DNA of 64,000 bases from an uncultured delta proteobacterium (GTDB lineage Bacteria; Desulfobacterota; Binatia; UBA9968): the NCBI GenBank assembly GCA_963816145.1, contig CAWFJP010000011.1:352001-416000 (forward strand). The letters run 5' to 3'. The position numbers and the translations under genes were made by a program. Below are positions 32,454 through 60,804 of the stretch, in pieces (positions within the stretch are counted from its first letter, which is position 1; every line of letters begins with the position of its first letter). The notes beneath the pieces are model-generated. The model was not told where the DNA came from. It saw only the letters and a program-made list of their open reading frames with translations, and searched no databases.

Positions 32454-33356
32454 CTAAGACTGCTTTACCGCGCCGGCCATCGCCCACTCCGTCGCGATCT
32501 GCCGCGCATTGGCCGCCTTGTCGTTGGACACTTGGGCGACCAATTTGCCCATGTGCAGCATATCGATCTGCAACGATTCGTCCATGTAGCCGAGATAATC
32601 GTCAAACGTCCGCTCGGCGAGCGAACGGTAGTGGCCGAATTTATCGATCAATAGCTGCACGACTTTGTCGCGATTGGCCTTGGCGTGAATAATCCCGTCG
32701 CGGTGCGCCGCTAAAAACACCCTGAAATCCTGCTCGCGCTCACCGAGCAGTTGCTGCGTCGTTTCAATGGTGATCGGCAAAGGATCGTCGACCAAGTCAT
32801 TCCAGTCAAGCATGCGGTGAAACCCCTTGTCTTCAGCGACAAACCCATAGGGCCGCGGCACGATCGCCGCGGCGGCCTTTCTGTCAAGCAGGGTATGAAA
32901 CGCCTCTTGGTCGCTAGGGACAAGTTTGATTTGAAAATCAGTGCCCATGGCGATGCCGCCGAGTTGCTCGAACTGCCAGCGAAACGGCACGCCGCGCGCC
33001 GGCCCTTCGCGGCAGACGACGATCCGGTCTTTGAGATCTTTGATTTCTTTAATCGCCGCGTCGGCAACCAACAGATAAGGGCAAGTATTCATGGCGCAGC
33101 CCAACACCCGCGTCGACTTGGTGTCGAGAAAATGCTGCAGCGAAGCGCGGCCGACGACAAACGACACCTGCGCCTCGCCGCTACCCAGGCGACGATAGCG
33201 CTCTTCGGTTCCTTGGACATGATTCCACGAAACCTCGAGGCCATGCTTTTCATAAATGCCGTCGGCGATCGACAGGTAGCCCGTGATGTCGCGGGCGAAT
33301 TTGCCGTCGATGCCTTCGAGATGTCCGTACATACAGCTGAGCTTGGTTAGACTCAT
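32454..33356 (-). CDS. NMT1/THI5-fold protein lacking a signal peptide
   Basis: ADGIYEKHGLEV and IKDLKDRIV motifs; AAGGAG RBS precedes the start; no hydrophobic N-terminus. Confidence 0.75.
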   Translation of the reverse strand: MSLTKLSCMYGHLEGIDGKFARDITGYLSIADGIYEKHGLEVSWNHVQGTEERYRRLGSGEAQVSFVVGRASLQHFLDTKSTRVLGCAMNTCPYLLVADAAIKEIKDLKDRIVVCREGPARGVPFRWQFEQLGGIAMGTDFQIKLVPSDQEAFHTLLDRKAAAAIVPRPYGFVAEDKGFHRMLDWNDLVDDPLPITIETTQQLLGEREQDFRVFLAAHRDGIIHAKANRDKVVQLLIDKFGHYRSLAERTFDDYLGYMDESLQIDMLHMGKLVAQVSNDKAANARQIATEWAMAGAVKQS

Positions 33357-33385
33357 GACCTTTTCTCCTTTGTGATGATTCCAGG

Positions 33386-33510
33386 TTTAGTGTGAAGATG
33401 TTTTCACCACGAAGGACACGAAGAGCACGAAGTTCGGAGTATTATTTTCCGAAACCTTCGTGTCCTTCGTGCCTTCGTGGTGAACAAAACCATCTGAACG
33501 ACACACGTAA
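33386..33510. repeat. Inverted-repeat element with (CACGAAG)3 arms
   Basis: ttcaccacgaaggacacgaagagcacgaag ... cttcgtgtccttcgtgccttcgtggtgaa. Confidence 0.85.
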
Positions 33511-33559
33511 AGCCTGAAGACCTCTATATTACGGTTGGCGCCGGCAAACAAACTTGGTC

Positions 33560-33589
33560 TTGACAGTACTCCGGCAGCGGGACTAAATT
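33560..33589 (+). promoter_or_regulatory. Putative sigma-70 promoter of the cupin gene
   Basis: TTGACA-N18-TAAATT upstream of the AGGAGG RBS. Confidence 0.45.
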
Positions 33590-33634
33590 CTGGACATCAT
33601 TAACGGCAAAATCATTTAACCAAAGGAGGGTCCC

Positions 33635-34066
33635 ATGAAAGTCTTAGATGTTCTGGAAATGTCGAAGGGCCGCAAAAAAGGCCAGCGCCGGATCGATCTT
33701 TTTCGCCGCGAGAATCTGGAAACCTGGATTCTGATTTTTCCCCCTGGCGACGTGCAAGTCATGCACAATCATCCGTCGGACCGGACCTATTATGTTCTGA
33801 CCGGCAAAGGTATCGTCAAAGGCCGCGACGAAACCCATGAGGTCACCCAGGGGCAGATCATCAGCATCCCAGCCCATGAGTTTTATGAAGGATCGAATCC
33901 CAATGACGAACCGATGATTCTGCTCGGCAACAGCCACAAAGCGACGGCGGAAGACGTCGCCAAAGCCGGCGGCCAAAGAAACGAAATCGACGCCAAGACC
34001 GGCAAGCGGGTAATTTTCCAGCATGGCGGCGGCCAAGACATGGGCGTGTTAGCCGACTGGAATTAA
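33635..34066 (+). CDS. Cupin domain protein
   Basis: MHNHPSDRTYYVLTGKG and GQIISIPAHEF cupin motifs. Confidence 0.85.
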   Translation: MKVLDVLEMSKGRKKGQRRIDLFRRENLETWILIFPPGDVQVMHNHPSDRTYYVLTGKGIVKGRDETHEVTQGQIISIPAHEFYEGSNPNDEPMILLGNSHKATAEDVAKAGGQRNEIDAKTGKRVIFQHGGGQDMGVLADWN

Positions 34067-34087
34067 ACTAACCCATCCACCAAGACT

Positions 34088-34121
34088 AAGCCCGGTCGAG
34101 GCAACTCGCCGGGCTTTTTTC
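34088..34121 (+). terminator. Intrinsic terminator after the cupin gene
   Basis: AAGCCCGGtCGAG-GCAA-CTCGCCGGGCTT followed by a T-tract. Confidence 0.75.
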
Positions 34122-34160
34122 TGGCCGTCAACAGTATCGCGCGAATGAGCTGGAACCAAA

Positions 34161-34318
34161 CACGAAATCCGAAGCTCGAAACTCGAAACAAATCCAAATG
34201 GAGAAAAACTCAATGTTCCAAACTAACTCCTTCGGATTCGAGGTTTTGGATTTTCCGTATTTAGAATTTATTTTGGCCTCGGTTTGTTTGGGATTTCGAC
34301 ATTCGGATTTCGGATTTT
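34161..34318. repeat. MITE-like inverted repeat with 7-bp-periodic (CGAAATC) arms, copy 1
   Basis: cgaaatccgaagctcgaaactcgaaacaaatc ... gtttgtttgggatttcgacattcggatttcggattt. Confidence 0.8.
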
Positions 34319-35037
34319 AGTCTCTCTCATCCCCTTCAGCCCCGCCTTTGCGTCCATACGCCCCTTGCAGCGTGCGAGTCTTGACGAAGAACATCATCTG
34401 CTCGTCGCTGCGAAACTTGCTCATGTCGTAGCGCTCGCGGTGAATCAATTCATCGAGGCCGCGGCGCGGCGGCGCCGCCACGGCGCTTTTGGCATAGCCG
34501 ATCGGCACCAAGTGATAAATGCGCAACGGCTCTGGGATGCCAAGCAGCGCCTTCAACATGGTTTCCATATACGGCGAATTGGCATCGCTGACATATTGCG
34601 ACGCAAGCCCTAGCGCCGTCGCCGCCAAGTGAATCAATAAGGTCGCGTTGGCCAAGCCGGTGATAAAGTGCGACTCGGCCTTCTCCAACTTGGTACGGAT
34701 CGGATAGGCTTCTTTGACCCTTGGATCACCGAGAATAACGATATGCACCGGCGCGTGGCGAAAGCCGTCGCCGGTCATCTTCGCCGTGCCGCGCACGGCC
34801 ATGTCCATCTCACGCTTCTGCTCCATCTGCTTGAGATAGTAATCGGCGATCTTGTGCCGCGTCGCGCGCTCGCGCACGATGACAAATTCCCAAGGCTGGG
34901 CGTTGCCCCCGGACGGAGCCCAGCGGGCACAATCGAGGATCGTCCGAATCGTCTCAGTCGGAAACTTCCCGGCTGCCGTCGTAGCCGCGAATACTGCGCC
35001 GCTGTTCGACTAGCGACTGCAAGTCAACGATGTTCAT
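34317..35037 (-). CDS. Nitroreductase family protein (one frameshift near 34955)
   Basis: MNIVDLQSLVEQRRSIRGY..., then in the shifted frame ARWAPSGGNAQPWEFV; LAATALGLAS motif; GGAGG RBS. Confidence 0.85.
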
Positions 35038-35281
35038 TTTCCACCTCCGAAAGTATGATTACCGAATGGTATTTTCTTTTTGCGCCGGTTCACCTTATCA
35101 AGAACTGCGGCGGTGAACATAGTTTCTTGCTCCATGCGGAGTTACCACTTCGATTTAGCCGCCCCTCCAACTCGCCGAACTCCTGAACCTTTCCCCATTA
35201 AGGCCCCCTAATCGTTCCTTGACGCCGGGCATGCACCTGGCTTAGAAGTCAGCTCAGTTCCGGGAACAGGATCGGACATTG

Positions 35282-35360
35282 CACCGCAGAGGCGCGGAGC
35301 GCGCGGAGGGAATCCGTTATCTTAAAGCAACACTCTGTGAACTCTGTGTCGCCGCGGTGA
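35282..35360. repeat. 9-bp-periodic inverted repeat (CGCAGAG/CTCTGTG type)
   Basis: caccgcagaggcgcggagcgcgcggag ... ctctgtgaactctgtgtcgccgcggtg. Confidence 0.7.
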
Positions 35361-35390
35361 AGAGTCTCTCCCCTTAATGCCGTAGCTCTT

Positions 35391-38300
35391 ATGGCGACGA
35401 CCAGCAAGAAAACGCCGAAGAAATCGCAGGCAAAGCCGCGAGCCAAGTCTGCTTCGCCGTCCGTTGCCAAGCTGAAAAACACCATCGCCGCGCAAGCGCG
35501 GGAGATCCGTGAAGGCGCGGAACAGCAGGTGGCAACGAGCGAGATCCTGCGGATGATCGCCAAGGCCCCAGGCGATCTCCAATCGGTCTTGGATACGCTG
35601 CTGGCCAACGCCGTAAAACTCTCTGGCGCAACACAAGGGCATATTCGCCAGTTTGACGGCGAGTTCCTGACGTATGTCTCGCATTTCAATGAGAGTCCCG
35701 AAGTTGTCGCCACTCTAAATCAACTGCCTCAGCGACCGCGGCCGGAGAGTATCAGCACCCGAGCTCTGACCGAGAAACACCCCGTCCACATTCTTGACGC
35801 GCAAGCGGAGCCAAATTTTCGCGGCCCTGCGGCGCAAGCTCATGCGCGCACAATGTTAGTCGCGCCGCTATTGCGGGAAGACGTTGGGATCGGAACGATC
35901 ACGATTTGGCGCGACTTCGTCGAGCCGTTTACGGATCGTCAAATCGAGCTGGTCAAAACTTTCGCCGACCAAGGCGTGATAGCCATCGAGAATGTTCGGC
36001 TCTTTAATGAACTCGAAGCGCGCAACCGTGATCTCAGCGAAGCGCTGGAGCAACAGACTGCGACAGCTGAAATTCTCGGTGTGATCGCCAGTTCTCCGAC
36101 CGATTTGAACCCGGTGCTGGAAGCCATTACCGAGCGGGCTGCGCGCGTCTGCGGCGCGGAAGACGCCGTCATGCGGCTCGTTGAAGGACATGTCATGCGC
36201 CTGGCGGCGCACTACGGATCGGTGCCCGATGTCGCAGTGGAGCGGCCGATCGATCGCCAATCGCCTCCCGGCCGCGCGGTGCTGGAGCGGGACATCGTCC
36301 ATATCGAGAATATTCAACTGGTGGCGGCGAGCGAATTCCCCGGGGTCGTCGACACTGCCAGGCGGACCGATACCGGGACGGTTCTAGCCGTGCCGTTAAT
36401 GCGAGAGGGAGTCGCCCTCGGCGTCATACATTTCCGCCCAATCGAAGTTCGTCCTTTTTCGGAAAAACAAATAGCTCTTCTCAAAAGCTTTGCCGATCAA
36501 GCCGTGATTGCCATCGAGAACGTGCGCCTGTTCCAAGAGCTGCAAGTTCGTAACCGCGACCTCACCGAAGCACTGGAGCAGCAAACCGCGACCGGCGAAG
36601 TCCTGCGGGTCATCGCTTCGTCACCGACGGAGTTGCAGCCGGTGCTCGACACACTGATCGCGAATGCGGTGAAGCTTGCCGGCGCCAAGCAGGGACATAT
36701 TCGCCAGCATGACGGTGAGTATTTTAGAGCCGTAGCGCATTACGGCGAGAGTCCAGAACTGGTGGACACCTTGCGCACCAACCCAATACGACCCGCTCCA
36801 GACACTCAGCTCGGTCGAGAATTCCTAACTCGCACACCGCTCCACATCCTCGACGCTCGGCTCGATCCTGACCGCCAAAATCTCGCAGCGCGAACCGGCG
36901 CTCGAACCCTGTTGGTCGTCCCGCTGCTACGAGAAGATAGTTCAATTGGCGGGATTACGATTTGGCGCGATGTCGTCGATCCTTTCAGCGACCGGCAGAT
37001 CGAGCTGGTCAAAACCTTCGCCGACCAGGCTGTCATCGCTATTGAGAACGTCCGCTTATTCCAAGAGCTGACTGAATCTCTCGACCAGCAAACTGCTACG
37101 AGCGAAATCCTGGGCGTGATTGCCAGCTCGCCGACGGATATACAACCGGTGCTCGATACCGTTGCAGCAAATGCCGCCCGCCTATGCGAGGCCAACGATG
37201 CGCAGATTTACCGCGTCGAAGGCGCGCTGATTCGCAAAGTCGCCATCCATGGAGATGTGCCTAGCCATCTTCCACTCGGTGAAACCAGGCCGTTAACCCG
37301 CGGTTCCGTTAGCGGCCGTGCGGTTCTCGACCGGGAAATGGTTCACTTTCATGACATGTGGGAAGCGCGCCAAGAGGACTTTCCGGACGTCCATTATCCG
37401 ACGAACGAAAGGTTGGGACTTCGGACGTTTCTTTCTATTCCGCTTCTGCGGGAAGGCGTTGCCATCGGCGTGATCACGATCCGTCGCCGGGAGGTGCAGC
37501 CGTTTACAGAAAAACAAATTGCCCTGCTCAAAACCTTCGCCGACCAAGCCGTCATCGCTATCGAAAACGTGCGGTTGTTCCAAGAACTGCAAGTTCGCAA
37601 CCGCGATCTTACCGAAGCGCTGGAGCAACAAACCGCCACCGGCGAAGTCCTGCGGGTCATCGCCAGCTCGCCGACGGACATTCAGCCCGTCCTCGATACG
37701 GTGGCCGCCAATGCAGCGTGCTTGTGTGACGCGACCAACGCGCAGATTTTCCGCGCCGATGGCGATGTCCTTCGTTTGGCCGCAAATTTCGGCGACCTCC
37801 CAGCACGGACGGAGATACTTTTGGGCTCCGGCACCGTTGGGAGCCGCGCGATCACCGAGCGGAGAACAGTTCATGTCCATGACCTTGACCAGTCCGCGGA
37901 GGAGTTCCCGGAGAGCCAGGGCGCCGGTTATCGCACCCGGCTAGCGACGCCATTACTGCGCGAAGGAGTCGTCCTTGGCGTGATCGGCATTCGCCGATTG
38001 GAAGTCCGGCCGTTTACTGACAGCCAAATCAAATTATTGGAGACCTTCGCCGCCCAGGCGGTGATCGCCATCGAGAACGTCCGGCTGTTCCAAGAACTCA
38101 AGGAATCCCTCGAACAGCAGACTGCGACGAGTGAAATTTTGGGCGTCATTGCTAGCTCGCCGACGGATATTCAGCCGGTGCTCGATGCGGTAATTGCCAA
38201 TGCGGTGAAATTGTCCGGGGCTACCAAGGGCCATGTCCGTCGGCTGGAAAATGGATTTCTCCACGTAGTCGCGCACTGTAACGAAACTCCTGAACAGATC

Positions 38301-41300
38301 GAGTATCTAAGCGCTAATCCGATTCCTGTCTCGCGGAGCGTTTCGATCCTTGAAAATCGAGTCGTCCACCGACACGACCTTCAGGAACGAAATCAAATGC
38401 TTGGTATAGACTCGTTCTTGGGAGCGCGGACCCAATTGGGTGTGCCTTTGCAGCGTGAGGGAATAGCAATTGGCAATATCATGATTTGGCGGGATGTCGT
38501 CGAGCCGTTTACCGACCGGCAAATCGATCTGGTCAAAACCTTCGCCGACCAAGCGGTCATCGCCATCGAGAACGTGCGGCTGTTCAATGAACTGCAGCAG
38601 CGCAACCGTGATCTCACTGAAGCGCTGGAGCAGCAGACGGCGACGAGCGAGATTCTGGGTGTTATTGCCAGTTCGCCGACCGATCTGACACCCGTCCTAG
38701 AAACCGTGGCGAGGAACGCGGCGCGGCTTTGTGAAGCGAAGAGCGCGCAGGTGTATCGCACCGATGGCGATTTGCTGCGGCTTGCCGCGAACTACGGGGA
38801 ACTGCACGCGGGAGAGACCAGGCCGATTGGCCGAGGCACAGTGAGCGGCCGCGCAGTTGTCGATCGCAAAACCATTCACACCGACGAACGCATCCAATAT
38901 GCAGTGGAGTTCCCCGACAGTAAGAGCGCTAGCGGCGAAACGCGTCTGTCGACGCCGTTGCTGCGCGAAGGTGTTGCCATCGGCGTAATCGGCATTCGCC
39001 GCACCGAACTGCGACCATTCACCGAAAGCCAAATCAAGCTCATCGAGACCTTTGCTAAGCAGGCCGTGATTGCGATCGAAAATGTGCGGCTGTTCAACGA
39101 ACTGAAGGAGTCACTGGAGCAGCAAACGGCGACGAGCGAAATCTTGGGCGTCATTGCCAGCTCGCCGACAGACATCCAACCGGTGCTCGACACTGTGGCT
39201 CAAAACGCGCTGCGAGTTTGTGGAGCGGAAGACGCGCTGGTCTGGCGTCTAGACGGAAGCACCCTCCGGCTTGTCGCCAACTGCGGTTCACTGCCGGCAC
39301 GACCTATTGGGTCCGAGCGCCAGGTAGACCATGGCTCCATCACCGGGCGAGCGGTGATCGAACGGCAGACCGTTCATGTGCAGGATGTCGCGGGAGCCGC
39401 AGCAGAATTCCCAAGTATGCGCGGCTTAATTGGGGCGGGTACCGCGCTTGCTACGCCACTGCTGCGGGAAGGCGTACCGATCGGTGTGATTCATATTCGC
39501 CGGATGGAAATCGGTCCGTTCTCGGACAAGCAAATATCCCTGCTTAAGACCTTCGCCGACCAGGCGGTGATCGCCATCGAAAACGTGCGCTTGTTCAAGG
39601 AACTCGGCGAGCGCAATGCGGAGCTGCGCGAGGCGCTGGAGCATCAGACGGCGACCGCCGAGGTGCTCGGTATCATCAGCCGCTCGCCGACAGACGTGCA
39701 GCCGGTCCTCGACGCCATTGTCGAGAGCGCGGCAAAGGTTTGCGGGATCGATGACGTGGTGCTGCGACTCATTGAAGGGGACGCAATGGTCGCCCGTGCG
39801 CATTTTGGTCCCCTTGCAATACCGACGACCCGCGCAGCAATCACTATGGATGAACCACGGTTTTCCTGGATGCGCGAGCATGGAACGCTGCACATTCCTG
39901 ATGTCCGCGAGCAACAGGATTTTCCGGGTCTAGGTTCGGTGATTAGTTTCCGCACGTTCTTAGCCGTGCCGCTCAAACAACAAGGGCAATTCATTGGAAC
40001 ACTTAACGCACGTCGCACCGAGGTGCGCCCCTTCACCCCGGTGCAAATCAAGCTGATGGAAACCTTCGCTGACCAAGGCGTGATCGCCATCGAGAATGTG
40101 CGGTTGTTCAAAGAATTGCAAGAACGCAACCGCGATCTCACCGAGGCGCTGGAGCAACAGACAGCGACGAGTGAGATTCTGCGCGTCGATCGCCAGCTCG
40201 CCGACGGATATGCAGCCGGTGCTGGACACAGTTATCGCCAATGCCGTGAAACTATGCGAGCGCAAAAGAAGCGGCCACGTGTGGCAGGTTGATGGAGACC
40301 GACTGCAAGTGAGTGGCATTGCGGCACGGTCGAGACTCCCGAAGAAGTTGCCGTTACTTACGAGTAGACCACTGCAATTTGGAGCACGAAGTCCATCAGC
40401 TCGTGCTTTTCGTCGAGGGCAGGCCACGTTCAATCTCAGGACGCGCAACTAGAACTGCCAGAATCGATAGCTCGGATAGTTCAAACCGGAATGCGCACGA
40501 TCTTGGGAGTACCTCTGTTGCGCGAAGGGATCCGCTATCGGAACGATCACAATTCGGCGCGATGTAGGTGCAACCGTTCACCGATCGTCAAATAGAGCTG
40601 TTGCAAACCTTCGCCGACCAAGCCGTCATCGCCATCGAGAACGTCCGCTTGTTCAAAGAACTCGACGAGCGCAATGCGGAGCTGCGCGAGGCGCTGGAGC
40701 ATCAGACGGCGACCGCCGAGGTGCTCGGCATCATCAGCCGCTCGCCGACAGACGTGCAGCCGGTCCTCGACGCCATCGTCGAGAGCGCCGCCCGGGTTTG
40801 TCGGATCGATGACGTGCTGCTGCGACTCCAACAGGGAGACACTATGACTGTGCGAGCCCATTTTGGCCCCGTAGCCGTTGGAGTCGTCGAATTTAGTATT
40901 GATACGCCACAGTATCGCTGGATGCGCGATTACGGCACGCTCCACGTTCCCGACGCCCGCGCCGCGCAGAATGATTTTCCAATGATGGGTGTCGTCGGCG
41001 GGTGGCGCAGCTTCTTGGGCGTTCCCCTTCGCCAGCAGGGAGAATTCATCGGAGTACTGAACGCACGTCGCACCGAGGTGCGCCCCTTCACCCCGGCGCA
41101 GATCAAACTGCTTGAAACCTTCGCCGACCAAGCGGTGATCGCCATCGAGAACGTGCGCCTATTCCGGGAACTCGGCGAGCGCAATGCGGAATTGCGCGAG
41201 GCCCTGGAGCATCAGACCGCAACCGCCGAGGTGCTCGGCATCATCAGCCGCTCGCCCACCGACGTCCAGCCTGTGCTTGACGCTATCGTGGAGAGCGCCG

Positions 41301-44300
41301 CCCGGGTTTGCGGGATCGATGACGTGGTGCTCCGACTCCGCGAGGGAGACATAATGGTTTCGCGGGGGCATTTTGGTCCCATACCTATGACGCGTGGGCA
41401 GATTGGCACGGATGAGCCGCATGTCCGCTGGATGCATGAACACGGTACGCTTCACATTCCCGATCTCCACGCGCAGAGCGATTTTCCAATGTTGGGGGCC
41501 ATCGCCGGCAACAACCGCGTATGGTTAGGCGTGCCCCTTCGCCAGCAGGAGGAACTCATTGGATATGTGGCCGCACGTCGGACAGAGGTGCGTCCATTCA
41601 CCCCAGCGCAGATCAAGCTGATGGAAACGTTTGCCGATCAAGCCGTGATTGCCATCGAAAACGTGCGACTGTTTCAAGAACTCACTGAATCCCTGGAGCA
41701 GCAAACCGCCACGAGTGAAATCTTGGGCGTCATCGCCAGCTCGCCGACGGATATTCAGCCGGTGCTCGATGTGGTTGCTGAAAACGCGGCGCGGCTCTGT
41801 GACGCAACGGATGCGATAATACACCGCCGCGAGGGTGAATTGGCTCGCGCCGTGGCGTTTTATGGACCACTCGGGCCGACCAGACCTGTCGGAGAAGCGT
41901 TCCGACCTTCTAGATCGGAGGTGCCTGGACGGGCGATGCTAGACGGCAAAACGGTTCACGTTCATGACATCGCGGCAGATCTCGACGCAGAGTTTCCGGA
42001 ATCCAGAGCACACCAACAGATAAGCGGTTCGCGCACGATCCTGGTTACGCCGCTGCTCCGTGAGGGCGTCGCCATCGGTGTAATCATGATTCGCCGCACC
42101 GAAGTTCGTCCGTTCCCGGACAAGCAGATCAAACTGCTTGAAACCTTCGCTAGACCAAGCCGTCATCGCCATCGAGAACGTCCGCTTGTTTAAAGAACTC
42201 GACGAGCGCAATGCGGAGTTGCGCGAGGCGCTGGAGCATCAGACGGCGACGGCCGAGGTGCTCGGCATCATCAGTCGCTCGCCGACGGACGTGCAGCCGG
42301 TCCTCGACGCCATCGTCGAGAGCGCGGCTCGGGTTTGTGGGATCGATGACGTCTTGCTGCGACTCCACGAGGGAAACGCTATGACAGTGCGGGCTCATTT
42401 TGGTCCCATACCCATGAGCCGCGTCGAGATCGGTATTGATGAGCCACAATTCCGCTGGATGCGCGAGCATGGCACGCTTCACATCCCCGACGTCACCGAG
42501 TGGAACGATTTCCAAGTCGTGACCGCCGGCGGCTGGCGCACCCACTTATCTGTTCCGCTTCATCAGCAAGGGGAATTCATTGGAGGACTGACCGCACGTC
42601 GCATCGAGGTGCGCCCGTTCACCCCGGCGCAGATCAAGTTGCTCGAGACCTTCGCCGATCAAGCCGTCATTGCCATCGAGAACGTCCGCCTGTTCCACGA
42701 GCTGGAAGCGAAAAACCGCGATCTCACCGAAGCGCTGGAGCAGCAAACGGCGACGAGTGACATTCTCGCGGTCATTAGCAGCGCGCCGACCGAATTGCAG
42801 CCGGTGTTCAATACCATCGCCGAGCATTCGGTCAAGCTATGTGGCGGCCTCTTTAGTTCTGTCTATCGCTTCGATGGCGAGCTAATTCACATGGTAGCCG
42901 ATCACAACTATCCACCGATCGCCCTGGAACGATCCCGGCAGCTCTTTCCAACCCGACCGGGCCGACATCTGTTCACGGCGCGAGCCATCCTCGATCGCGC
43001 GGTCATCCACGTCCCCGATGTCGCGCGTGATACCGAGCATGCCGACCTTAATGTCACCGAAGAGTCGCGCTTCCGAAGCGTATTGTCCGTGCCGATGCTC
43101 CGCGGAAACAACCCCATTGGCGCAATCACAGTTTGGCATGCCGACATCGGACCGTTCACACAGAAGCACGTGGCGCTGCTGCAAACCTTCGCCGACCAGG
43201 CCGTCATCGCCATTGAGAACGCGCGCTTATTCCAGGAACTGGCAGCGCGCAACCGCGATCTCTCTGAAGCGTTGGAGCAACAGACCGCCACGAGCCAGAT
43301 ACTTGGTGTCATCGCCAGTTCGCCGACCGACATTCAGCCGGTGCTGGACGTTGTCGCCGAAAACGCGGCGCGGCTATGCGAGGCAACCGACGCGGTAATT
43401 CATCGCATTGATGGCGACAAGCTCCGACCAGTGGCTAATTACGGGCCGTTGCCGGGACGGGGGGGGCGGGAATTCATTCCAATAGTCCGTGACCATATAC
43501 CCGCCCGAGCCATAATTGACCGGCGAACCCTTCACATCGATGACCTGGCAGCAGTGCCAGAGAGTGACCTTCCAGCGGGTTTCGCCAGACGTGTCGGCGT
43601 TCGGACGGTGTTGGCCACGCCGTTGCTGCGCGAGGGAATTCCCATCGGGACGATTCATATCCGCCGCATGGAGGTCCGACCTTTTACCGATAAGCAGATC
43701 AAGCTCCTTGAAACGTTTGCCGCCCAAGCGGTCATCGCCATAGAAAACGTGCGCTTGTTCCAAGAGCTCAAGGAATCGCTGGAGCAGCAAACTGCGACGA
43801 GTGAAATCTTGGGTGTTATCGCCAGTTCGCCGACTGACATCCAACCGGTGTTAGACGTAGTTGCGGAAAATGCGGCCCGGCTGTGTGATGCGTTTGACGC
43901 ACTAATACTTCGAGTCGATGGAGACACTCTCCGGGATGTTGCGAAGTATGGGTCCGTGCCCACTCCAGGCTACCCTTTGCCTGTCACTCGCGGCACGCCT
44001 GTCGGTCGTGCTGTCACCGACAGACATACGATCCACGTTCATGATCTCACGGCGGAGGTGGAAACCGAGTTCCTAGAATCCAAGACAAGACAGGAAATTA
44101 GCGGCTCTCGAACCGCACTCGCTACACCGTTGCTGCGAGAGGGGATTCCCATCGGGGCTATCGTCATCCGCCGCACGGAAGTTCGCCCCTTTTCGGATAA
44201 GCAGATTAAACTTCTTGAAACCTTCGCCGACCAGGCCGTGATCGCCATCGAAAACGTCCGGCTGTTCCAAGAACTCGAAGCGCGCACTCGCGAGCTGGCG

Positions 44301-45535
44301 CAGTCGGTGGGAGAACTAAGAGCGTTGGGTGCGGTCAGTCAAGCGGTCAGCTCGACGCTCGATCTCGAAACGGTGCTCTCGACGATCGCTTCCCACGCGG
44401 TCCAGCTTTCCGGCACCGATTGCGGCGTGATTTATGAGTACGATGAACGCGAGCAAGAATTTGACTTAAGGGCGAGCCATCGGATGGAGACGGAGGTCGT
44501 CGAGATCTTGCGCGCCGCGCCGATCCACCTGGGCGAGGGCGCCACCGGCCGGGCGGCGACCATGCGCGCGCCGGTGCAGGTGCCGGACTTTTCCAATGAG
44601 CGGGAATTTACCGGCGCGCGGGCACGGCCTCTTCTGATCCGGCTGGGTTACCGCTCACTGCTTTCGGTGCCGCTCATGCGCGAGCAACAGATCCTGGGCG
44701 CCTTGACGGTCTGGCGTCGCCAGGCTGGGGAATTTAAACCCGAAGTCATTAACCTGCTGCAAACCTTCGCCACGCAGTCAGCTCTGGCCATCCACAACGC
44801 GCGGCTGTTCCGCGAGATCCAGGAAAAAGGCCATCAACTGGAGTTGGCGAGCAAGTACAAGTCGCAGTTCCTGGCGAGCATGAGCCATGAGCTGCGCACG
44901 CCGATGAACGCCGTGTTGGGCTACACGCGCATGCTCTTGATGAACGTCTACGGCGAGCTGCCGGAGAAAGTCAGAGACGTGCATGGACGCATCGACAAAA
45001 GCGGCCGCCATCTGCTCGGCTTGATCAACGATGTGCTCGACTTCTCCAAGATCGAGGCCGGCCAGCTGGCGTTGACGATCAATCCTTACTCGATCAAAGA
45101 TGTCATCCAGGCCGTGGTCACAAGCACGCAATCGCTGGCAACCGAGAAGAATGCTCGAATTAAGAATCACCGCGCCGGCCGAGTTGCCGGCAGCGTCCGG
45201 CGATGAGCGGCGCATTTCCCAGGTGCTGTTGAACTTGGTCGGTAACGCGATCAAGTTTACCGACTCTGGCGAAGTGCGCATCGATGCGGCGGCAACGGAC
45301 GGCGCGTTGGAAGTTTCCGTCTCAGATACCGGACCGGGAATTTCGCCGGCGGATCAAGAACATATCTTCGAAGAATTCCGCCAAGCCGAAGGCTCCGTCG
45401 CGCAGCGAAAAGGCGGCACCGGCCTCGGCCTGGCGATTGCGAAAAAGATCGTCGAAATGCACGGCGGCAAGATTTGGGTCGAGAGCGAAGTCGGCAAAGG
45501 CTAGCACGTTTACGTTTACGCTACCGCTCAAATAA
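35391..45535 (+). CDS. Giant cytoplasmic sensor histidine kinase with 18 tandem GAF domains plus HisKA and HATPase (split by several frameshifts)
   Basis: 18 copies of the (T/S)FAxQ(A/G)VIAIENxRLF-type motif at ~510-550 bp spacing; H-box SHELRTPMN, N-box NLVGNAIKFT, DTGPGI, GGTGLGLAI. Breaks near 40190-40570, 42152, 45155 and 45502. Confidence 0.88.
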
Positions 45536-45536
45536 G

Positions 45537-45716
45537 AAAAATCCGAAGCACGAACACTGGAAAGCACGAAATCCGAATTTCGAAATCCGAAACAAATTCG
45601 AATGTTCAAAATTCAAAATCCCAAACGAATTTCGGTTCCGGTATTTTGGATTTTCTTCGTTTTCTGTTTTTTGGTTTCGTTTGTTTCGAATTTCGTGCTT
45701 CGGATTTCGGATTTTA
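45537..45716. repeat. MITE-like inverted repeat with 7-bp-periodic (CGAAATC) arms, copy 2
   Basis: aagcacgaaatccgaatttcgaaatccgaaacaaattcg ... gtttgtttcgaatttcgtgcttcggatttcggattt. Confidence 0.8.
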
Positions 45717-45735
45717 AATAGAATCGAGAGTTGTT

Positions 45736-46104
45736 ATGGCTGGTAAGCGAATTTTGGCGATCGAAGATCACGAGGAAAACCGGCGGTTGTTGCGCGATCT
45801 GTTGACCAGCTTTGGCTATGAGTTGATCGAAGCGGTCACGGGCGAAGAAGGTGTTACGGCGGCGGAAACGGAGCGGCCGGACCTGATTCTTATGGACATC
45901 CAACTGCCCGGCATCGACGGCTACGAAACCACCCGGCGCATCAAGGCGAACCCCGCGCTGAGCCATATCCCCATCATCGCTGTGACCTCCTACGCGCTCA
46001 GCGGTGACGACGCCAAAGCCTTCGCCGCCGGCTGCGACGCCTATGTGACCAAACCGTTCGATCCGGCGGATCTTTTGGAAAAGATCAAGGGGTATCTGGG
46101 TTAG
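45736..46104 (+). CDS. Single-domain response regulator (DivK-like)
   Basis: IED, LILMDIQLPGIDGYE, AVTSYA, YVTKP motifs. Confidence 0.93.
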   Translation: MAGKRILAIEDHEENRRLLRDLLTSFGYELIEAVTGEEGVTAAETERPDLILMDIQLPGIDGYETTRRIKANPALSHIPIIAVTSYALSGDDAKAFAAGCDAYVTKPFDPADLLEKIKGYLG

Positions 46105-46115
46105 AGGGAAAAGAT

Positions 46116-46217
46116 GTCTCTCGCAAAGGCGCAAAGACGCCAAGTTCGGAGAAAAGAGTAAATGAATTTTGATTCTGCGGTTTCCTAAACTTCGCGCCTT
46201 AGCGCCTTGGCGAGAGG
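46116..46217. repeat. 9-bp-periodic inverted repeat (CGCAAAG/CTTGGCG type)
   Basis: ctcgcaaaggcgcaaagacgccaag ... cttcgcgccttagcgccttggcgag. Confidence 0.75.
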
Positions 46218-46251
46218 TAATCCGAATCCGGCTTCTTAGTTGAGTCTGAAC

Positions 46252-47367
46252 ATGAGCGCTCCTGCGAAAATACTTGTCGTCGACGACACCGAGATGAACC
46301 GGGACATGCTGTCTACGCTGGTGGAGGCAGACGGCCACAAAGCTTCTGTTGCGGTAAATGGGCGGATCGGCTTGGAGATGCTCAAGGCGGAGCCGTTCGA
46401 TCTCGTCCTGCTCGACGTCATGATGCCGGAGATGAACGGTTATCAAGTCCTGGAACAGTTGAAGGCGGATGACAACCTACGCGCCATTCCGGTGATCGTG
46501 CTGTCCGCTCTCGACGAGATCGGCAGCGTCGTACGCTGCATCGAGCTCGGCGCCGAAGACTATTTGCCCAAACCCTTCGATCCTGTCCTGTTGCGTGCCC
46601 GCATCGGCGCCTGCTTGGAAAAAAAACGGCTGCGCGACCAGGAAGTTCAACTGCGCGGCGAATTGGCGGAGTGGAACAAGACCTTGGAGCAGCGGGTGCA
46701 AGATCAAGTCTCGCAACTTGAGCGTCTAAGCCGGCTCAAGCGCTTCTTTGCGCCGCAGCTGGCCGAACTGATCGTCAGCGGCGGCGCCGAAGATCCGCTG
46801 AAAACCCACCGGCGGGAAATCACCGTGGTCTATTTGGATCTCCGAGGCTTCACCGCGTTCGCTGAAACCGCCGAGCCCGAAGAGGTCATGGGGGTGCTGC
46901 GCGAATATCACGCCGCCATGGGACAACTGATCGCCGAGCACGAAGGCACCCTGGAGCACTTCGCCGGCGACGGCATGCTGATTTTTTTCAACGACCCGAC
47001 GCCGATCCCCAATCCCGCGGAGCAAGCCGTGCGCATGACCTTGGCGATGCGCGAGCGCGTTAAAGATTTGACGTTCAAGTGGCGCAAGCTCGGCCACGAG
47101 CTGGGTTTCGGCGTCGGCATCGCCCAGGGCTACGCCACCATCGGCGCCATCGGCTTCGAGGGCCGCTGGGAATATGGCGCCATCGGTAGCGTGCCCAACC
47201 TCGCCGCGCGGCTATGCGGCGAAGCGAAATCGGGCGAAATACTAGCGACCCAGCGCTTGGTCGGCGCGGTCGAAGATCTGGTCGAAGCCGAGAGCGTTGG
47301 CGAGTTAACTCTAAAAGGGTTTCACCGCCCAGTTGCGGCCTACAATATCCTGCGGCTCAAAGACTAG
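46252..47367 (+). CDS. Response regulator receiver fused to class III nucleotidyl cyclase
   Basis: REC: VVDD, LLDVMMP, YLPKPF. Cyclase: YLDLRGFT, FAGDG, NLAARLC, LTLKGF. Confidence 0.92.
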   Translation: MSAPAKILVVDDTEMNRDMLSTLVEADGHKASVAVNGRIGLEMLKAEPFDLVLLDVMMPEMNGYQVLEQLKADDNLRAIPVIVLSALDEIGSVVRCIELGAEDYLPKPFDPVLLRARIGACLEKKRLRDQEVQLRGELAEWNKTLEQRVQDQVSQLERLSRLKRFFAPQLAELIVSGGAEDPLKTHRREITVVYLDLRGFTAFAETAEPEEVMGVLREYHAAMGQLIAEHEGTLEHFAGDGMLIFFNDPTPIPNPAEQAVRMTLAMRERVKDLTFKWRKLGHELGFGVGIAQGYATIGAIGFEGRWEYGAIGSVPNLAARLCGEAKSGEILATQRLVGAVEDLVEAESVGELTLKGFHRPVAAYNILRLKD

Positions 47368-47473
47368 CGCGGGAGACCAGGACATTCGCCGCAGAATTCA
47401 AAATCTGCCGCACGAAAGCGGCCACCCCTGAGTTTTTTCGCTAAAGATATGTTATTATGGATAACATACTTCG

Positions 47474-50400
47474 ATGAGCGGAAAATCTATTCCTACCGAG
47501 TTGTCGCCGGTGCCCTCGCTGGCGGCTCGGCTGTTGTTCTTCCTCAATTTCAAGCGGCTCAAAGTCTGGCTTTGGTGGCTCGCCGTGATTTTGATCGTGG
47601 TCGCGGCGATATTCCTTGAGATCCAGACTTCACTCCTGCAATCTTGGTTTTTCACCAGCACCAACGAGCGGCTTTTTTACACCCTAAAAAACGGCCCGAG
47701 CCGGGAGATCATTTTCCCTCGTGCTGCGCCCTTCGACGAGCGGCGCGGCTATTCCAAGCTGCCCGCCTTTCAAAACCGCCTGGAATCCCAGGGCTATCGG
47801 GTGACCAAGCAAATGCGCCAGTCGGAAACCATGCTAACGCTCTTGGATCGCGGCATCTCGCCGCCCTATCTGGAACGGCCGGATGCCGGCTTGGAAATCA
47901 GCGGCGCCGACGGCGTGCAACTTTTTCGCTACGCCCAGGGCGAGTTTCTCTTCGGCAGGATCGACGACATCCCGCCGCTCCTGGTCAAGACCCTTTTATT
48001 CCTGGAGAACCGCGACCTAGACCGGCCGGTAACGTCTTGGCAAAATCCGGTGATAGAGTGGGACCGGACGCTCAAAGCGGGGCTTTATTATCTAGGGTCC
48101 ATATTCCAGCTGCCGGTACCGGTGCAAGGCGGCAGCACGCTGGCGGTTCAGCTGGAAAAATTTCGCCATTCGCCCCACGGCCGCACCGGCGATCCCTTGG
48201 AGAAACTGCGCCAGATCGTCGGCGCCAGTTTGAAAGCCTATCAGGCGGGCCCCAACACCCGTGCCTGGCGTGAGCGCATCGTCGTCGATTATTTGAATAC
48301 CGTGCCCCTGGCCGCCGCGCCATCCTATGGCGAGATTCACGGCCTGGGCGAAGGCCTTTACGCCTGGTTTGGCATTCGCTTGAGCGATGCGGTCAAGGAT
48401 TTGCGGTCCGCCAAAGCGACACCTGCCAAGGTGCGCGCCTTCAAACATGCCCTCGCCCTATTGATTTCAGTCCGCGCGCCGTCGGTGTTTCTGGTCGACG
48501 AGCGGTCATCGCTGGAAGAAAAGGTCAACCAGTTTACCCGCCTGATGGCCCGCGCCGGGGTGATCGACTGGGAGTTCGCCGCCCTTCTGCAAGAAACGCC
48601 GATCAAGTTTCTGCCCACTGCGCCGCTGCCGCCGCAGCCGTCGTCAAACAAGAACAAAGCCGCCAACGCCATCCGCGTCAGCATGATGGAGGCGCTTGGC
48701 GTGAACAATCTTTACGACCTCAATCGTTTGCATCTGCAAGTCGACAGCACCATCGATGTGCCACTGCAAAAGCGGGTATCGGATTTCTTCAATCGCTTGG
48801 CTCAGCGCGACGTCATCAAAGCCTATGGCCTCGACGGCGAGCGTTTGCTCGAGGCCGACGACCCATCGAAGATGATCTATTCATTCCTGCTCGTGGAGGC
48901 CACGCCCAACGGCAATTTGGTGCGCGTGCAGGCGGACAATTTGACGGCGTCCTTGGATTTCAACAAAAGTGTCAAGCTGGAGCTCGGCAGCACCGCCAAG
49001 CTGCGGACTCTGACGCATTATTTAGAATTGGTCACCGAGCTGCACAAAGAGCTCTCGGGCCTGGACCCCAAGCAGCTGCAAGAACGCGGCAACGCGGGCC
49101 GCGATCCCTTGACCAAATGGGCGGCGGAAACCCTGCGCGCAGACCCGGCCATGGCGCTGCAGCCGTTCCTCGACAAAGCCATGGAGCGGAAATATTCAGG
49201 CAGCCCCTATGAAGCTTTTTTCACTGGCGGCGGATTGCATCATTTTGAGAATTTCGACAAACAGGAAAATGAACGCATCTACGAAGTGCGCGATGCCCTG
49301 CGCAACTCCAACAATTTGTCGTTCATTCGTATCATGCGCGATCTGGCCAGCTACCATCGCGCCCGCCTCGATTACGACGCCAACGATGTGCTCGATAATC
49401 CCGACAACTCGACACGCCGGCAGATGCTTCAGGAGATCGCCGACGAAGAATCCCGCGTCGCGTTGCGCCGCGCCTATAGGATCTACGCCAAGCAAACGCC
49501 CGACGAGATCGTCAAACGGCTGATCGGCAGCAAACGTAATATCGAGCGCCGCCTGGCCATCCTGTTTTTCGCCTGGAGAATCGGCAGCGACGAGGAAGCA
49601 TTAACCGCCTGGCTGGAAAAGCATGAAGCCAAGAGCGCCGAGACCGATGTCGCGAAACTGTTTCGCGCCTACAATAATCCACGCTCTAACACTGGTCGAC
49701 TACGCCTATCTGCTCAACATGCACCCGCTCGAACTCTGGTGTGCCAGCGAGTATCGCAAGAACGGCGAGCTGTCTTGGGAAGAACTGTATAATAAAGGCG
49801 TTCAGGCGCGGCACCTGGGCTCGGCCTGGCTGCTCAACCCACGCAACCACCGCGCCCAAGAGAATCGACTGCGCATTCGCATTGAAAAAGACGCCTTCGC
49901 GCGCATGACGCCCTACTGGCAGCGGCTCGGCTTCCCATTTAAAACTTTGGTGCCGACCTATGCCACCGCCATCGGCAGTTCGTCGGACCGGCCGACGGCG
50001 CTAGCCGAGCTGGTGGGAATTCTCGTCAACGACGGCGTACGCCGGCCGGCGACGACATTAACCAAGATTCATTTCGCCGGCAAAACACCCTACGAGACGT
50101 CTGCTCGAACGGCACCAGGAAAAGGGCGAACCGGTGCTCGCCCCCGAGGTCGCCCGCACCATGCGCAAAGCCATGGCCGCGGTCGTCGAGCAGGGGACCG
50201 CGCGCAGACTCAACGGCGTGTTCAAACTCGCCGATGGCACGGTGCTCACCGTCGGCGGCAAGACCGGCTCCGGCGACAATCGTTTTGAGACTTTCAACCG
50301 CAGCGGCGGCGTGATCAGCTCGCGCGCCACCAACCGCACGGCGACCTTCGTCTTTTACATCGGCGAGCGTTACTACGGCGTCATCACCGCCTTCGTCCAA

Positions 50401-51852: not shown

Positions 51853-51913
51853 GCCAGACAAACCTTGAAGGATATTCTAGCGAGTACCGAGCGCAAATAA
51901 CCGGTTGCGATCA

Positions 51914-57598
<5,685 letters not shown>

Positions 57599-60087: not shown

Positions 60088-60804
60088 TTATCTCATTCGA
60101 TCATGACACCAATAAATGTCTCGCGACTTTGACCTCAATTCCTCCGCCCGCGTCCGCCAATCAGGCAAAGACCGATCTAGTAGCCGCCAGAATTCAGTCC
60201 CATGGTGCGGTTCACGAAGATGAGCCAACTCGTGAACGATTACGTAGTCGATAACGCGGGCGGGCAATTGCAATAGCGGCCAATTGAAATACAGCGCGCC
60301 GTTTTTACCGCAGGAGCCCCAACGATAGCCAAGGGCGCGGACGCTGACACGCGATGGGGACGCGGGAATTTTCCGGCTCAGCAACTCTACCCGCCGGGAG
60401 AGCCATGCTCCACCGCTGCGAACGTACCACTCCCTGAAATGCTTCGTCGCTTGTGCGCGCGCGCTTACGCGAAGCAAAAAATATCTGCCGTCAAACTCTA
60501 GATTTGTTGATGCGTCGCGCAGAAGTTTCAACCGGTAGTTTCTCCCCAGGAAAGTGAAATTTTCTCCGCTAACAAATGCGGGTTTCCTTAGTTGCGGCGC
60601 TGACTCGGCTTTGCTTAACAGTTTTCGGTGAACCCACAGGAGTTTCGCTTGCGTCCAACGCGCTAACTCGTCCCGGTCGCTCGACTCCGGCGCGTGAATC
60701 ACCAGCTCGCCGCCGCGGTCAACCGTCAGCCCTAACGTGGCTCGCCTTGGACTTCGCCTGACCTCGAAAACAAGATTGCTGAGTTCTAAAGTTTCCATTG
60801 TCAC
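60088..60804 (-). CDS. M48/YgjP (DUF45) family metal-dependent hydrolase
   Basis: RWGSC, YVIVHELAHL, HGTEFW motifs; overlaps the hsdR stop. Confidence 0.9.
   Translation of the reverse strand: MTMETLELSNLVFEVRRSPRRATLGLTVDRGGELVIHAPESSDRDELARWTQAKLLWVHRKLLSKAESAPQLRKPAFVSGENFTFLGRNYRLKLLRDASTNLEFDGRYFLLRVSARAQATKHFREWYVRSGGAWLSRRVELLSRKIPASPSRVSVRALGYRWGSCGKNGALYFNWPLLQLPARVIDYVIVHELAHLREPHHGTEFWRLLDRSLPDWRTRAEELRSKSRDIYWCHDRMR

Follow-up and report, generated by a model that had tools for sequence, protein, structure and literature searches.

The poly-GAF kinase gene and its domains

We analysed a stretch of 64,000 nucleotides (hereafter the window) from an uncultured delta proteobacterium (contig CAWFJP010000011.1, positions 352,001 to 416,000 of the forward strand). 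The subject of this study is a gene on the forward strand of the window, at 35391..45535, which encodes a poly-GAF histidine kinase of about 3,379 amino acids when its reading frames are joined by read-through. The gene was found to contain the following features (the evidence is given in brackets; ORF, open reading frame; HMM, hidden Markov model).

35391..45535, + strand: whole poly-GAF kinase gene, frame-broken in the assembly (ORF map, Pfam, unit HMM)
35391..35522, + strand: Lys/Arg-rich N-terminal tail and first spine helix, no transmembrane segment (sequence, homologues)
35523..40154, + strand: GAF units 1-9 (subtypes A B A B B A B B C), frame 0, intact (Pfam, unit HMM)
40155..40699, + strand: GAF unit 10 (subtype A), with the damaged patch at 40187-40570 (unit HMM, stop-codon map)
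40700..42236, + strand: GAF units 11-13 (C C B), frame 2, with an extra base at 42151 (unit HMM)
42237..44348, + strand: GAF units 14-17 (C D B B), frame 0 (Pfam, unit HMM)
44349..44843, + strand: terminal divergent GAF, unit 18, subtype E (unit HMM)
44859..45062, + strand: HisKA (DHp) domain (Pfam, H-box)
45151, + strand: extra base in aat[g]ctc, frame 0 to 1, between the DHp and ATPase domains (sequence reading)
45199..45501, + strand: HATPase_c domain, frame 1, with an extra base at 45501 at its end (Pfam, sequence reading)

The three long frame pieces of the gene contained 9, 3 and 5 GAF stretches above the Pfam cut-offs, 17 in total. The unit HMM, which was built from 14 intact units of the window, placed 18 units; the tenth was broken and matched in pieces, and the last was divergent. 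The 17 Pfam stretches matched the GAF profiles (PF01590, PF13185 or PF13492), and unit 10 was recognised by the unit HMM; the GAF fold itself is seen in the structure model below. According to the unit HMM, units 1-9 start at 35523, 36051, 36579, 37086, 37626, 38115, 38631, 39120 and 39642, and units 10-18 start at 40155 (the broken unit), 40700, 41210, 41699, 42237, 42741, 43278, 43785 and 44349 (the divergent terminal GAF). Seventeen units open with Q-Q-T-A-T, followed by the divergent terminal GAF.

A single HisKA domain was present at the end of the third long piece (74.1 bits against a Pfam cut-off of 26.9), and a single HATPase_c domain was present in the frame-1 piece (107.8 bits against 26.4). 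The DHp domain of a class-I sensor histidine kinase was recognised by its H-box, SHELRTP, from 44883, and the ATP-binding (CA) domain by NLVGNAIKFT, DTGPGI, IFEEFRQ and GGTGLGL, read in the translation, which we take to be the N, G1, F and G2 boxes, respectively. The extra base at 45501 severs the conserved last strand STFTFTLPLK, which runs on in frame 2 to the stop codon at 45533-45535. The translation of the kinase was devoid of any transmembrane-like segment; the highest 19-residue Kyte-Doolittle mean was 1.78, within a charged beta-hairpin segment. The N-terminal tail is rich in Lys and Arg and, together with the first spine helix, provides 44 residues before unit 1. At least 10 Lys or Arg residues were found among the first 40 residues in 75 of 120 homologues (described below), and an intact homologue of 3027 amino acids from genome G006 contained the same tail, units and C-terminal end as the window gene. 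No curated NCBIfam model reached its cut-off for the kinase, the di-GAF or the receiver-cyclase encoded downstream.

An earlier note on this DNA, made from the sequence alone, had described 18 GAF units, a single HisKA-HATPase pair, a Lys-rich N-terminal tail and no transmembrane segment. The 18 units were borne out, with 'ENVRLF' unit ends lying within about 15 nucleotides of the positions noted, and the HMMER-type count that it proposed gave 17 units by Pfam and 18 by the unit HMM. The domain scores, the hydropathy and the tail visible in the translation agree with it as well. Its helical linkers reappear in the structure model below as a continuous helix between two GAF domains. Of its rod-like cytoplasmic protein, the cytoplasmic part stands and the rod-like part probably does.

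Unit subtypes, linkers and conservation

The units of the window were 35-76% identical pairwise and fell into subtypes A to E. Subtype A comprised units 1, 3, 6 and 10; subtype B, units 2, 4, 5, 7, 8, 13, 16 and 17; subtype C, units 9, 11, 12 and 14, which were 69-76% alike; subtype D, unit 15; and subtype E, unit 18. Among the 120 homologues, we counted 776 units of subtype B, 180 of C, 147 of A and 50 of D, and their order was found to follow a grammar. B was followed by C 152 times (149 with a 15-residue linker) and C by B 147 times (100 with an 8-residue linker); C was followed by C twice. When different proteins were compared, identity was 64% in the core of subtype C and 39-40% in that of A and B.

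From the 'ENVRLF' end of one unit to the next 'QQTAT', the linkers of the window measured 15 residues in 11 cases and 8 residues in 5 (16 of 16). In the 120 homologues, the linker lengths were 8 (290), 15 (836), 22 (4) and 57 (1) residues, and 1130 of the 1131 linkers fitted 8 + 7n residues. The 15-residue linker is the 8-residue form with one heptad added. The extra heptad contained conserved R/K (0.99), N (0.96) and L (0.98; n = 836 linkers), and the pattern L3, N7, L10, L14 places the Asn in an a/d core position. The helical segment from the last GAF 'xNxRLF' to the phospho-acceptor His measured 25 residues in the window and in 115 of the 120 homologues. The strict heptads of the linkers and this fixed distance argue that the array is mechanically coupled to the kinase.

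Each unit has essentially a single Cys. Of the 16 non-terminal units read, 13 have it at position 34 ('AARLC'), where helix alpha2 ends, as do at least 90% of the 1153 units from homologues. Conservation had two equally high peaks: the N-terminal helix and loop, QQTATSEIL.VI.SSPTD.QPVLD, and a second stretch, which opens with the beta5-beta6 hairpin and closes with the last helix, VPLLREG..IG...RR.EVRPFT..QI.LL.TFADQAVIAIENVRLF. The helices were the most conserved parts of the unit and positions ~38-105, on the pocket side, were variable, which weighs against the function proposed below. A variable pocket side with a conserved spine fits either many ligands, as the putative multi-ligand antenna of the earlier note would have, or mostly structural modules.

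The GAF array might therefore be mainly a structural rod or spacer, in which one or a few GAFs sense (for example subtype C or the terminal GAF) and the rest set length or stiffness or serve docking, with no summing of many ligands. Besides the conservation of the helices and the beta5-beta6 hairpin, this is favoured by the unit number, which varies from 8 to 19 among homologues and differs in the closest relative, and by the higher identity of subtype C between proteins. The recurrence of the subtypes with a grammar suggests, however, that the modules are not interchangeable filler, and GAF domains are generally ligand or cofactor binders. We regard a mainly structural array as a serious possibility, although a doubtful one.

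Structure model and structural relatives

Units 8-9 were modelled with AlphaFold2 from a 16-row alignment of B-C pairs taken from the window and from the loci of six relatives. The model (mean predicted local distance difference test score 86.8) contained two GAF folds joined by one 53-residue helix (149-201), followed by a 43-residue C-terminal helix that would enter the next unit. A straight spine of 18 units is estimated from the helix lengths to be ~100 nm long or longer. A homodimer prediction of the di-GAF, run without controls, scored 0.00 and is evidence neither for nor against a dimer.

The best Foldseek matches of the di-GAF model were the tandem GAFs of PDE2A (3ibj/1mc0), CyaB2 (1ykd) and PDE5A (3lfv), with E values of 1.2e-17 to 2e-16 and 12-16% identity; the GAF-PHY phytochrome pairs 8w26 and 4bwi were also near, as was 5lly. 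At the sequence level, the internal units had no significant PDB match other than 3oov (E 1.2e-4). The terminal GAF of the intact G006 homologue matched CyaB2 (1ykd, E 3.4e-10), and its kinase core matched HK853-type kinases (7z8n, 4.7e-53; 2c2a, 2.1e-45; also 3dge).

As in the tandem GAFs of PDE2A, PDE5A, PDE6 and CyaB2, two GAFs sit here on one long helix (149-201), and in those proteins too the GAFs govern a C-terminal catalytic domain within a dimer. Their modules, however, have two GAFs and a phosphodiesterase or cyclase output, whereas the window kinase has 18 GAFs and a histidine kinase output, at the low identity given above. The GAF-GAF-HK sensor kinases DosS and DosT of Mycobacterium tuberculosis are likewise soluble class-I kinases in which N-terminal GAFs feed the DHp and CA domains; they differ in having 2 GAFs instead of 18. 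GAF-A of DosS binds haem, whereas no cofactor is indicated for the window kinase. Bacteriophytochrome and cyanobacteriochrome kinases resemble it in carrying serial GAF-type domains on a helical spine that leads to a kinase or cyclase. Unlike them, the window kinase contained no PAS or PHY domain in any piece (Pfam) and no Cys-His motif was seen in its units, which have the lone conserved Cys at the end of alpha2; no bilin is indicated.

The inter-GAF helices of CyaB2 pair antiparallel, according to PMC1592074; those of a kinase with a DHp dimer would, in contrast, be expected to run parallel. Heptad-periodic linkers, including those between consecutive sensor modules, mark signalling coiled coils and were described for phytochrome-type sensors in PMC6798134. 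The S-helix (Anantharaman, Balaji and Aravind, 2006; PMC1592074) is described as a helical connector with polar core residues in its central heptad, proposed to be a switch, with an E-R-T signature in the central heptad of a parallel coiled coil of ~40 residues. The 15-residue inter-GAF linkers are similar in that they carry a conserved R/K-N pair with the Asn in a core position. Where E-R-T would be expected, however, the 836 linkers contained N (0.96) and hardly any T (0.03); only the linker before the terminal GAF reads ART (window) or ERT (G006). Unlike the S-helix, the linker is repeated up to 17 times per protein and alternates with a heptad-less form. The inter-GAF linkers thus resemble the S-helix in function and are not members of that class in the strict sense.

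Size and distribution of the family

Homologues were searched with residues 2560-3027 (the C-terminal 468) of the intact G006 protein among targets of 1664-5298 amino acids. All 8000 candidates scored were matched; the query includes the universal kinase core, so that 8000 is not a count of poly-GAF kinases. The best 120 clusters were analysed. These proteins ranged from 1709 to 3939 amino acids and all contained GAF, HisKA and HATPase_c Pfam families; the named ones were called only 'GAF domain-containing protein' or similar. By the unit HMM they contained 8-19 full units each, one protein having 18 and eight having 19. A profile of 15 window units, searched against 1.84 billion cluster representatives, matched 118,027 proteins at E<=0.001, 57,569 at 1e-10 and 18,696 at 1e-30. 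The best 150 of the 118,027 had 5-17 matched stretches, with at least 12 in 23 of the 150. For 73 homologues of the receiver-cyclase in species-representative genomes, the kinase upstream had from 0 to at least 16 detectable units within the 10 kb fetched. A DNA match to the locus was found in 17 of 21 genomes (a tally that includes G005, flagged as unpublished; nothing else reported here depends on that genome).

In the closest relative (L009, G003:C29), the flanking genes were 84-96% identical at the protein level; the orthologous locus was shorter by ~2 kb, about four units, and the units in its middle were not collinear with those of the window. Unless the assembly differs, the unit content of the arrays therefore varies among close relatives.

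The QQTAT-unit poly-GAF family, as defined here, has units of ~163-180 amino acids that start from Q-Q-T-A-T, linkers whose length is 8 + 7n residues, a spacing of 25 residues between the last GAF and the His, a basic N-terminal tail, and CheY and receiver-cyclase genes downstream. All of these were found in the window gene. The family, from soil and wetland bacteria, is large and experimentally unstudied, and the window gene is unusual, not unique.

The earlier note had seen in this gene the strongest candidate for an undescribed system in the window. This was not supported, the architecture being common: the survey of GAF copy number in homologues that it proposed gave 8-19 units in all 120 of the best ones. 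It had also held that such copy numbers would speak against its claim if they were routine in characterised kinases; they are common in public data, yet not routine in any characterised kinase found. Characterised GAF kinases carry one to a few GAFs. A literature search on tandem or multi-GAF kinases, heptad linkers and linker motifs, which did not cover subscription journals, returned no paper on such arrays. What the present analysis adds is the heptad-quantised linkers with their core-Asn heptad, the grammar of the subtypes and the connection with a cyclase output.

Frame breaks in the assembled gene

The gene as assembled was split into at least 7 frame pieces (ORF listing and stop-codon map), as follows.

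35391-40292, frame 0: piece of 1633 amino acids
40084-40452 and 40313-40567, frames 1 and 2: short pieces
40568-42193, frame 2: piece of 541 amino acids
42090-45206, frame 0: piece of 1022/1038 amino acids
45076-45504, frame 1: piece of 142 amino acids
45233-45535, frame 2: piece of 100 amino acids, stop codon 45533-45535

As assembled, no uninterrupted frame runs through the sensor, DHp and CA parts, which are separated by at least 7 frame changes. A single ORF of ~3,380 amino acids, as claimed in the earlier note, is hence not what the assembly holds; several ORFs are present, and what that note had itself named as speaking against it is, for the reading frames, formally the case. Reading the DNA against the conserved protein pattern, we found extra bases at 40187 (gtc[g]atc), at 42151 (gct[a]gac, which falls within the conserved helix TFADQAVIAIEN) and at 45501 (ggc[t]agc), in addition to that at 45151. 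All breaks outside unit 10 consisted of one added base in a non-homopolymer context. In the damaged patch of unit 10 (40187-40570, ~380 bp), every frame is interrupted by stops, and at least 8 single-base indels were counted. The homologous frame through it was 0, 1, 0, (stop), 0, 1, 2, with stops at 40365, 40450 and 40565. The gene was open from break to break at 35391-40186, 40568-42150, 42152-45150 and 45152-45500, so that the visible damage outside the unit-10 patch consists of indels alone. The units keep their register across each break, and the flanking units still scored 175-262 bits.

The gene might instead be several separate genes, encoding a GAF-only protein of 1633 amino acids, another of 541, a GAF-HisKA protein and a free ATPase domain, as the ORF calls of the assembly would have it. 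The breaks, however, lie inside conserved helices and domains, the next piece resumes the domain in register, no start codon with an intergenic spacer was seen at the junctions of the frame pieces, and the homologues are single ORFs. This explanation, already contradicted by the anatomy, is in our view scarcely credible.

Two possible causes of the breaks were discarded. Repeat collapse was rejected, as the DNA repeats within the gene reach at most 81% identity over 300 nucleotides; collapse or a chimeric assembly of the gene is unlikely. Slipped-strand phase variation was rejected, as homopolymers and short tandem repeats are absent from the break sites.

Contigs of other metagenomes at the breaks

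The breaks were compared with Logan contigs of four wetland and soil metagenome runs (X1-X4), each with 26-33% of the sampled words of the locus. These contigs are from near relatives, not from the same DNA. The base at 40187/40188 was omitted in all four runs, at the whole depth in X1, X3 and X4, and in X2 at a depth of 11.5 of 25 at 40187 and 5.75 of 37.2 at 40188. The base at 42151/42152 was also omitted in four of four runs and that at 40413 in three of four; the bases at 40256, 40268 and 40271 were omitted in one X4 contig, and two contigs over 40331-40525 carried 5 and 6 gaps. The contigs of other samples thus lack the extra base at the best-covered breaks, and the failure to find one uninterrupted frame therefore probably lies in the assembly, not in the gene.

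The summed contig depth was 300-1400 at several break segments, against 2-10 in unique parts. These breaks sit in segments conserved across paralogues and many co-occurring organisms, and we offer the idea that read recruitment for the consensus could be confounded there. Contig joints that skip 1.5-3.1 kb between units were considered and are not evidence for alternative unit numbers or chimerism, their sides being short (21-38 nucleotides) and matched at 90% likeness. None of the 21 runs listed for the locus was RNA, and they have no bearing on expression.

Consensus error or pseudogene

The genome of the window was found to contain five poly-GAF kinase genes in four loci. The other four (C1 308-322 kb, two in tandem; C8 7-13.5 kb; C11 181.5-191 kb), each with its own H-box and G2 box, were located by the unit HMM as follows.

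G000 C1:307500-321900, - strand: two tandem poly-GAF kinase genes
G000 C8:6700-13600, + strand: poly-GAF kinase gene
G000 C11:181500-191200, - strand: poly-GAF kinase gene

The five genes account for 91 of the 112 unit-HMM domain hits of the genome; arrays of 1-3 units elsewhere in it form one ORF each. In the same genome, 42 non-GAF ORFs of at least 1200 amino acids were open (the longest of 4328), and other scanned genes of the window were whole, for example an amidase matched over 1-445 of 445. The bound on the frameshift rate of the genome rests on these 42 ORFs and the Pfam-scanned window genes. Among loci with at least 9 domain hits, eight of nine on records named 'contig_N' were in 8-21 pieces, against none of four on k141- or bin-style records, and one further locus was in 2 pieces. 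Intact homologues were found at the following loci.

L017 (G006): single ORF of 3027 amino acids, ATG to stop; 16 full-length unit matches and a terminal GAF
L014 (G012): single ORF of 2158 amino acids; 11 units
L018 (G008): single ORF of 1854 amino acids, stop to stop; 9 units
L086: single ORF of 3049 amino acids, stop to stop; 16 units
L053: single ORF of 1841 amino acids, stop to stop; 9 units
L046: single ORF of 2364 amino acids, stop to stop; 12 units

We consider it likely that the locus is one gene, damaged mostly by consensus errors. Consensus error is preferred because the damage consists of indels only, because it depends on assembly style, and because the extra bases are absent from other samples.

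Several observations weigh on the other side. The gene as assembled is not one ORF, and the unit-10 patch is so damaged that a real decay of that unit may have occurred. All five poly-GAF kinase genes of the genome are broken, in 4-12 pieces each, and this concentration of errors in poly-GAF genes is not accounted for by repeat collapse, given the limited identity (<=81%) of the repeats. The contigs of the four runs were short (134-491 nucleotides) and accepted from 90% identity, and some come from other strains or organisms. The base at 45501 was omitted in X4 only (6.63 of 14.9 depth), the contigs of X1-X3 spanning the site without a gap, and no omission at 45151, ~40312, ~40530 or ~40567 is among the rows listed, the omission table having six further rows.

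The rival explanation is a real pseudogene, in which the kinase and the four other poly-GAF genes would have been inactivated by genuine single-base insertions, with unit 10 decaying. It would account for at least 7 frame changes in 10.1 kb and for the 380-bp patch, with its stops and at least 8 indels, for the breakage of all five kinase genes beside other long ORFs that are intact, for insertions outside homopolymers, and for the gapless contigs at 45501 in three of the four runs. Against it, the long pieces are open, the units flanking the breaks score well, and the damage elsewhere than in the unit-10 patch is of indels only. In addition, contigs of all four runs from other samples lack the extra bases at 40187 and 42151, breakage tracks assembly style and not lineage (8/9 against 0/4), and the receiver genes downstream are intact. 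We judge a real pseudogene to be unlikely, and prefer one gene with consensus errors.

Two giant same-strand ORF pairs were also observed in this genome, of 4328 and 1492 amino acids with a 158-nucleotide overlap (G000 C3:128012-145313, + strand) and of 2847 and 2734 amino acids with a 116-nucleotide overlap (G000 C3:20728-37354, + strand). They may be adjacent genes or frameshifted single giant genes; in the latter case, frame errors would not be limited to GAF genes.

Downstream genes and spacers

The kinase gene is followed on the same strand by two receiver genes, and the spacer before them contains a repeated element.

45538..45715, no strand: AT-rich palindromic intergenic element (AAATCCGAA repeats), in a ~200-bp spacer between the kinase and CheY-like genes
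45736..46104, + strand: CheY-like single-domain response regulator, 122 amino acids (Response_reg, 99 bits)
46252..47367, + strand: receiver and class III adenylate/guanylate cyclase, 371 amino acids (Response_reg, 97.3 bits; Guanylate_cyc, 64.4 bits)

A CheY-like gene was present downstream of the kinase in 9 of the 10 relatives' loci fetched (L009, L010, L011, where it is in pieces, and L013-L018), the copies of L009 and L014 being 96% and 89% identical to that of the window. The order kinase, CheY, receiver-cyclase was found in 7 of the 10 (L009, L011, L013-L017) and in the genome's own C1 locus. In L010, the CheY-like gene was followed only by a second receiver, and in L018 by the end of the contig. 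Judging by the gene order, the receiver-cyclase is the probable output of the system. Upstream of the kinase, a cupin gene and a nitroreductase-family gene lie on the opposite strand.

The palindromic element has 30-nucleotide arms that are 87% complementary, and the genome contains 7-10 occurrences of its core motifs (<=1 mismatch). Copies are found directly 3' of the C11 181.5-kb poly-GAF kinase gene and between the two C1 kinase genes. In contigs of other metagenomes, another sequence stands in place of this spacer, and joints and loose ends are numerous at 45567-45715. A GC-rich hairpin element, similar to the REP type, lies at 46105-46251 between the CheY-like and receiver-cyclase genes; one of its arm motifs occurs 16 times in the genome (<=1 mismatch). 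No tRNA or Rfam family was found in scans of 33000-48000.

Three further genes of the window were observed. An ORF of 1897 amino acids (51905-57598, + strand) matched the UvrA interaction domain (two stretches), the UvrA DNA-binding domain and ABC ATPase; the usual UvrA is about half as long, and the ORF is possibly a duplicated or fused UvrA-like protein. A type I restriction enzyme R subunit (60801-63995, - strand) contained HSDR_N, SWI2_SNF2 and T1R_D3-like domains. An ORF of 772 amino acids (47474-49792, + strand) had a weak Transglycosylase match (36.5 bits), with no transpeptidase domain detected.

Proposed function

Taking architecture, assembly and neighbourhood together, we think it probable that a single gene at this locus encodes a giant soluble sensor histidine kinase of class I, ~3,379 amino acids long, with 18 GAFs on a helical spine, with most or all frame breaks being consensus errors, and with the receivers as its output. 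A basic N-terminal tail, 18 GAF domains, the DHp (HisKA) domain and HATPase_c would follow one another in one chain, in which each GAF ends in a helix that passes unbroken into the opening helix of its neighbour. The spine keeps a strict heptad register from the first GAF to the phospho-acceptor His. An analogy with sensor kinases whose domains are linked by coiled coils suggests a parallel homodimer, in which conformational changes of the GAFs may travel along the coiled coil and set the balance between kinase and phosphatase. The gene order suggests that the phosphoryl group would pass to the two receivers encoded directly downstream, where the CheY-like single-domain protein may serve as a sink or connector and the receiver-class III cyclase would make a cyclic nucleotide the output.

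The conserved cyclase gene also raises the idea of a feedback, in which the cAMP or cGMP produced by the receiver-cyclase would bind to many of the GAFs, as happens in CyaB1/CyaB2 and in phosphodiesterases, and the many sites would give a steep cooperative switch. The nearest solved folds are indeed cyclic-nucleotide-binding tandem GAFs (3ibj/1mc0, 1ykd and 3lfv, E 1e-17 to 1e-16), and the terminal GAF of the homologue matched CyaB2 in sequence. The identity to those structures is, however, only 12-16%, the internal units had no significant PDB sequence match apart from 3oov, and, judged by eye, the units seem to lack the residues of NKFDE type that mark cyclic-nucleotide-binding GAFs. We hold such a feedback to be very improbable.

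A further proposal, which we regard as a long shot, is that the proteins form parallel coiled-coil rods of ~100 nm or more, each a chain of allosteric joints. The 15-residue linkers with a buried Asn would be switchable hinges and the 8-residue linkers would lock rigid GAF pairs (for example C-B); the subtypes would bind different metabolites, the highly conserved C a universal one, and their states would be combined along the spine into one kinase/phosphatase decision that sets cyclic-nucleotide synthesis by way of the receiver-cyclase. If true, such a kinase would act in the cytoplasm as a logic device with many inputs, for which there is as yet no experimental description.

For annotation, the finding is a warning that, in assemblies of this style, such genes fall into many ORFs and get missed or miscounted. 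If it is intact in the cell, the window kinase lies towards the upper end of a class of bacterial sensors that is very large and unstudied, with 8-19 GAFs each. The family lends itself to studying over what distance, and in what way, coiled coils carry signals, and whether many sensor modules can be integrated on one output.

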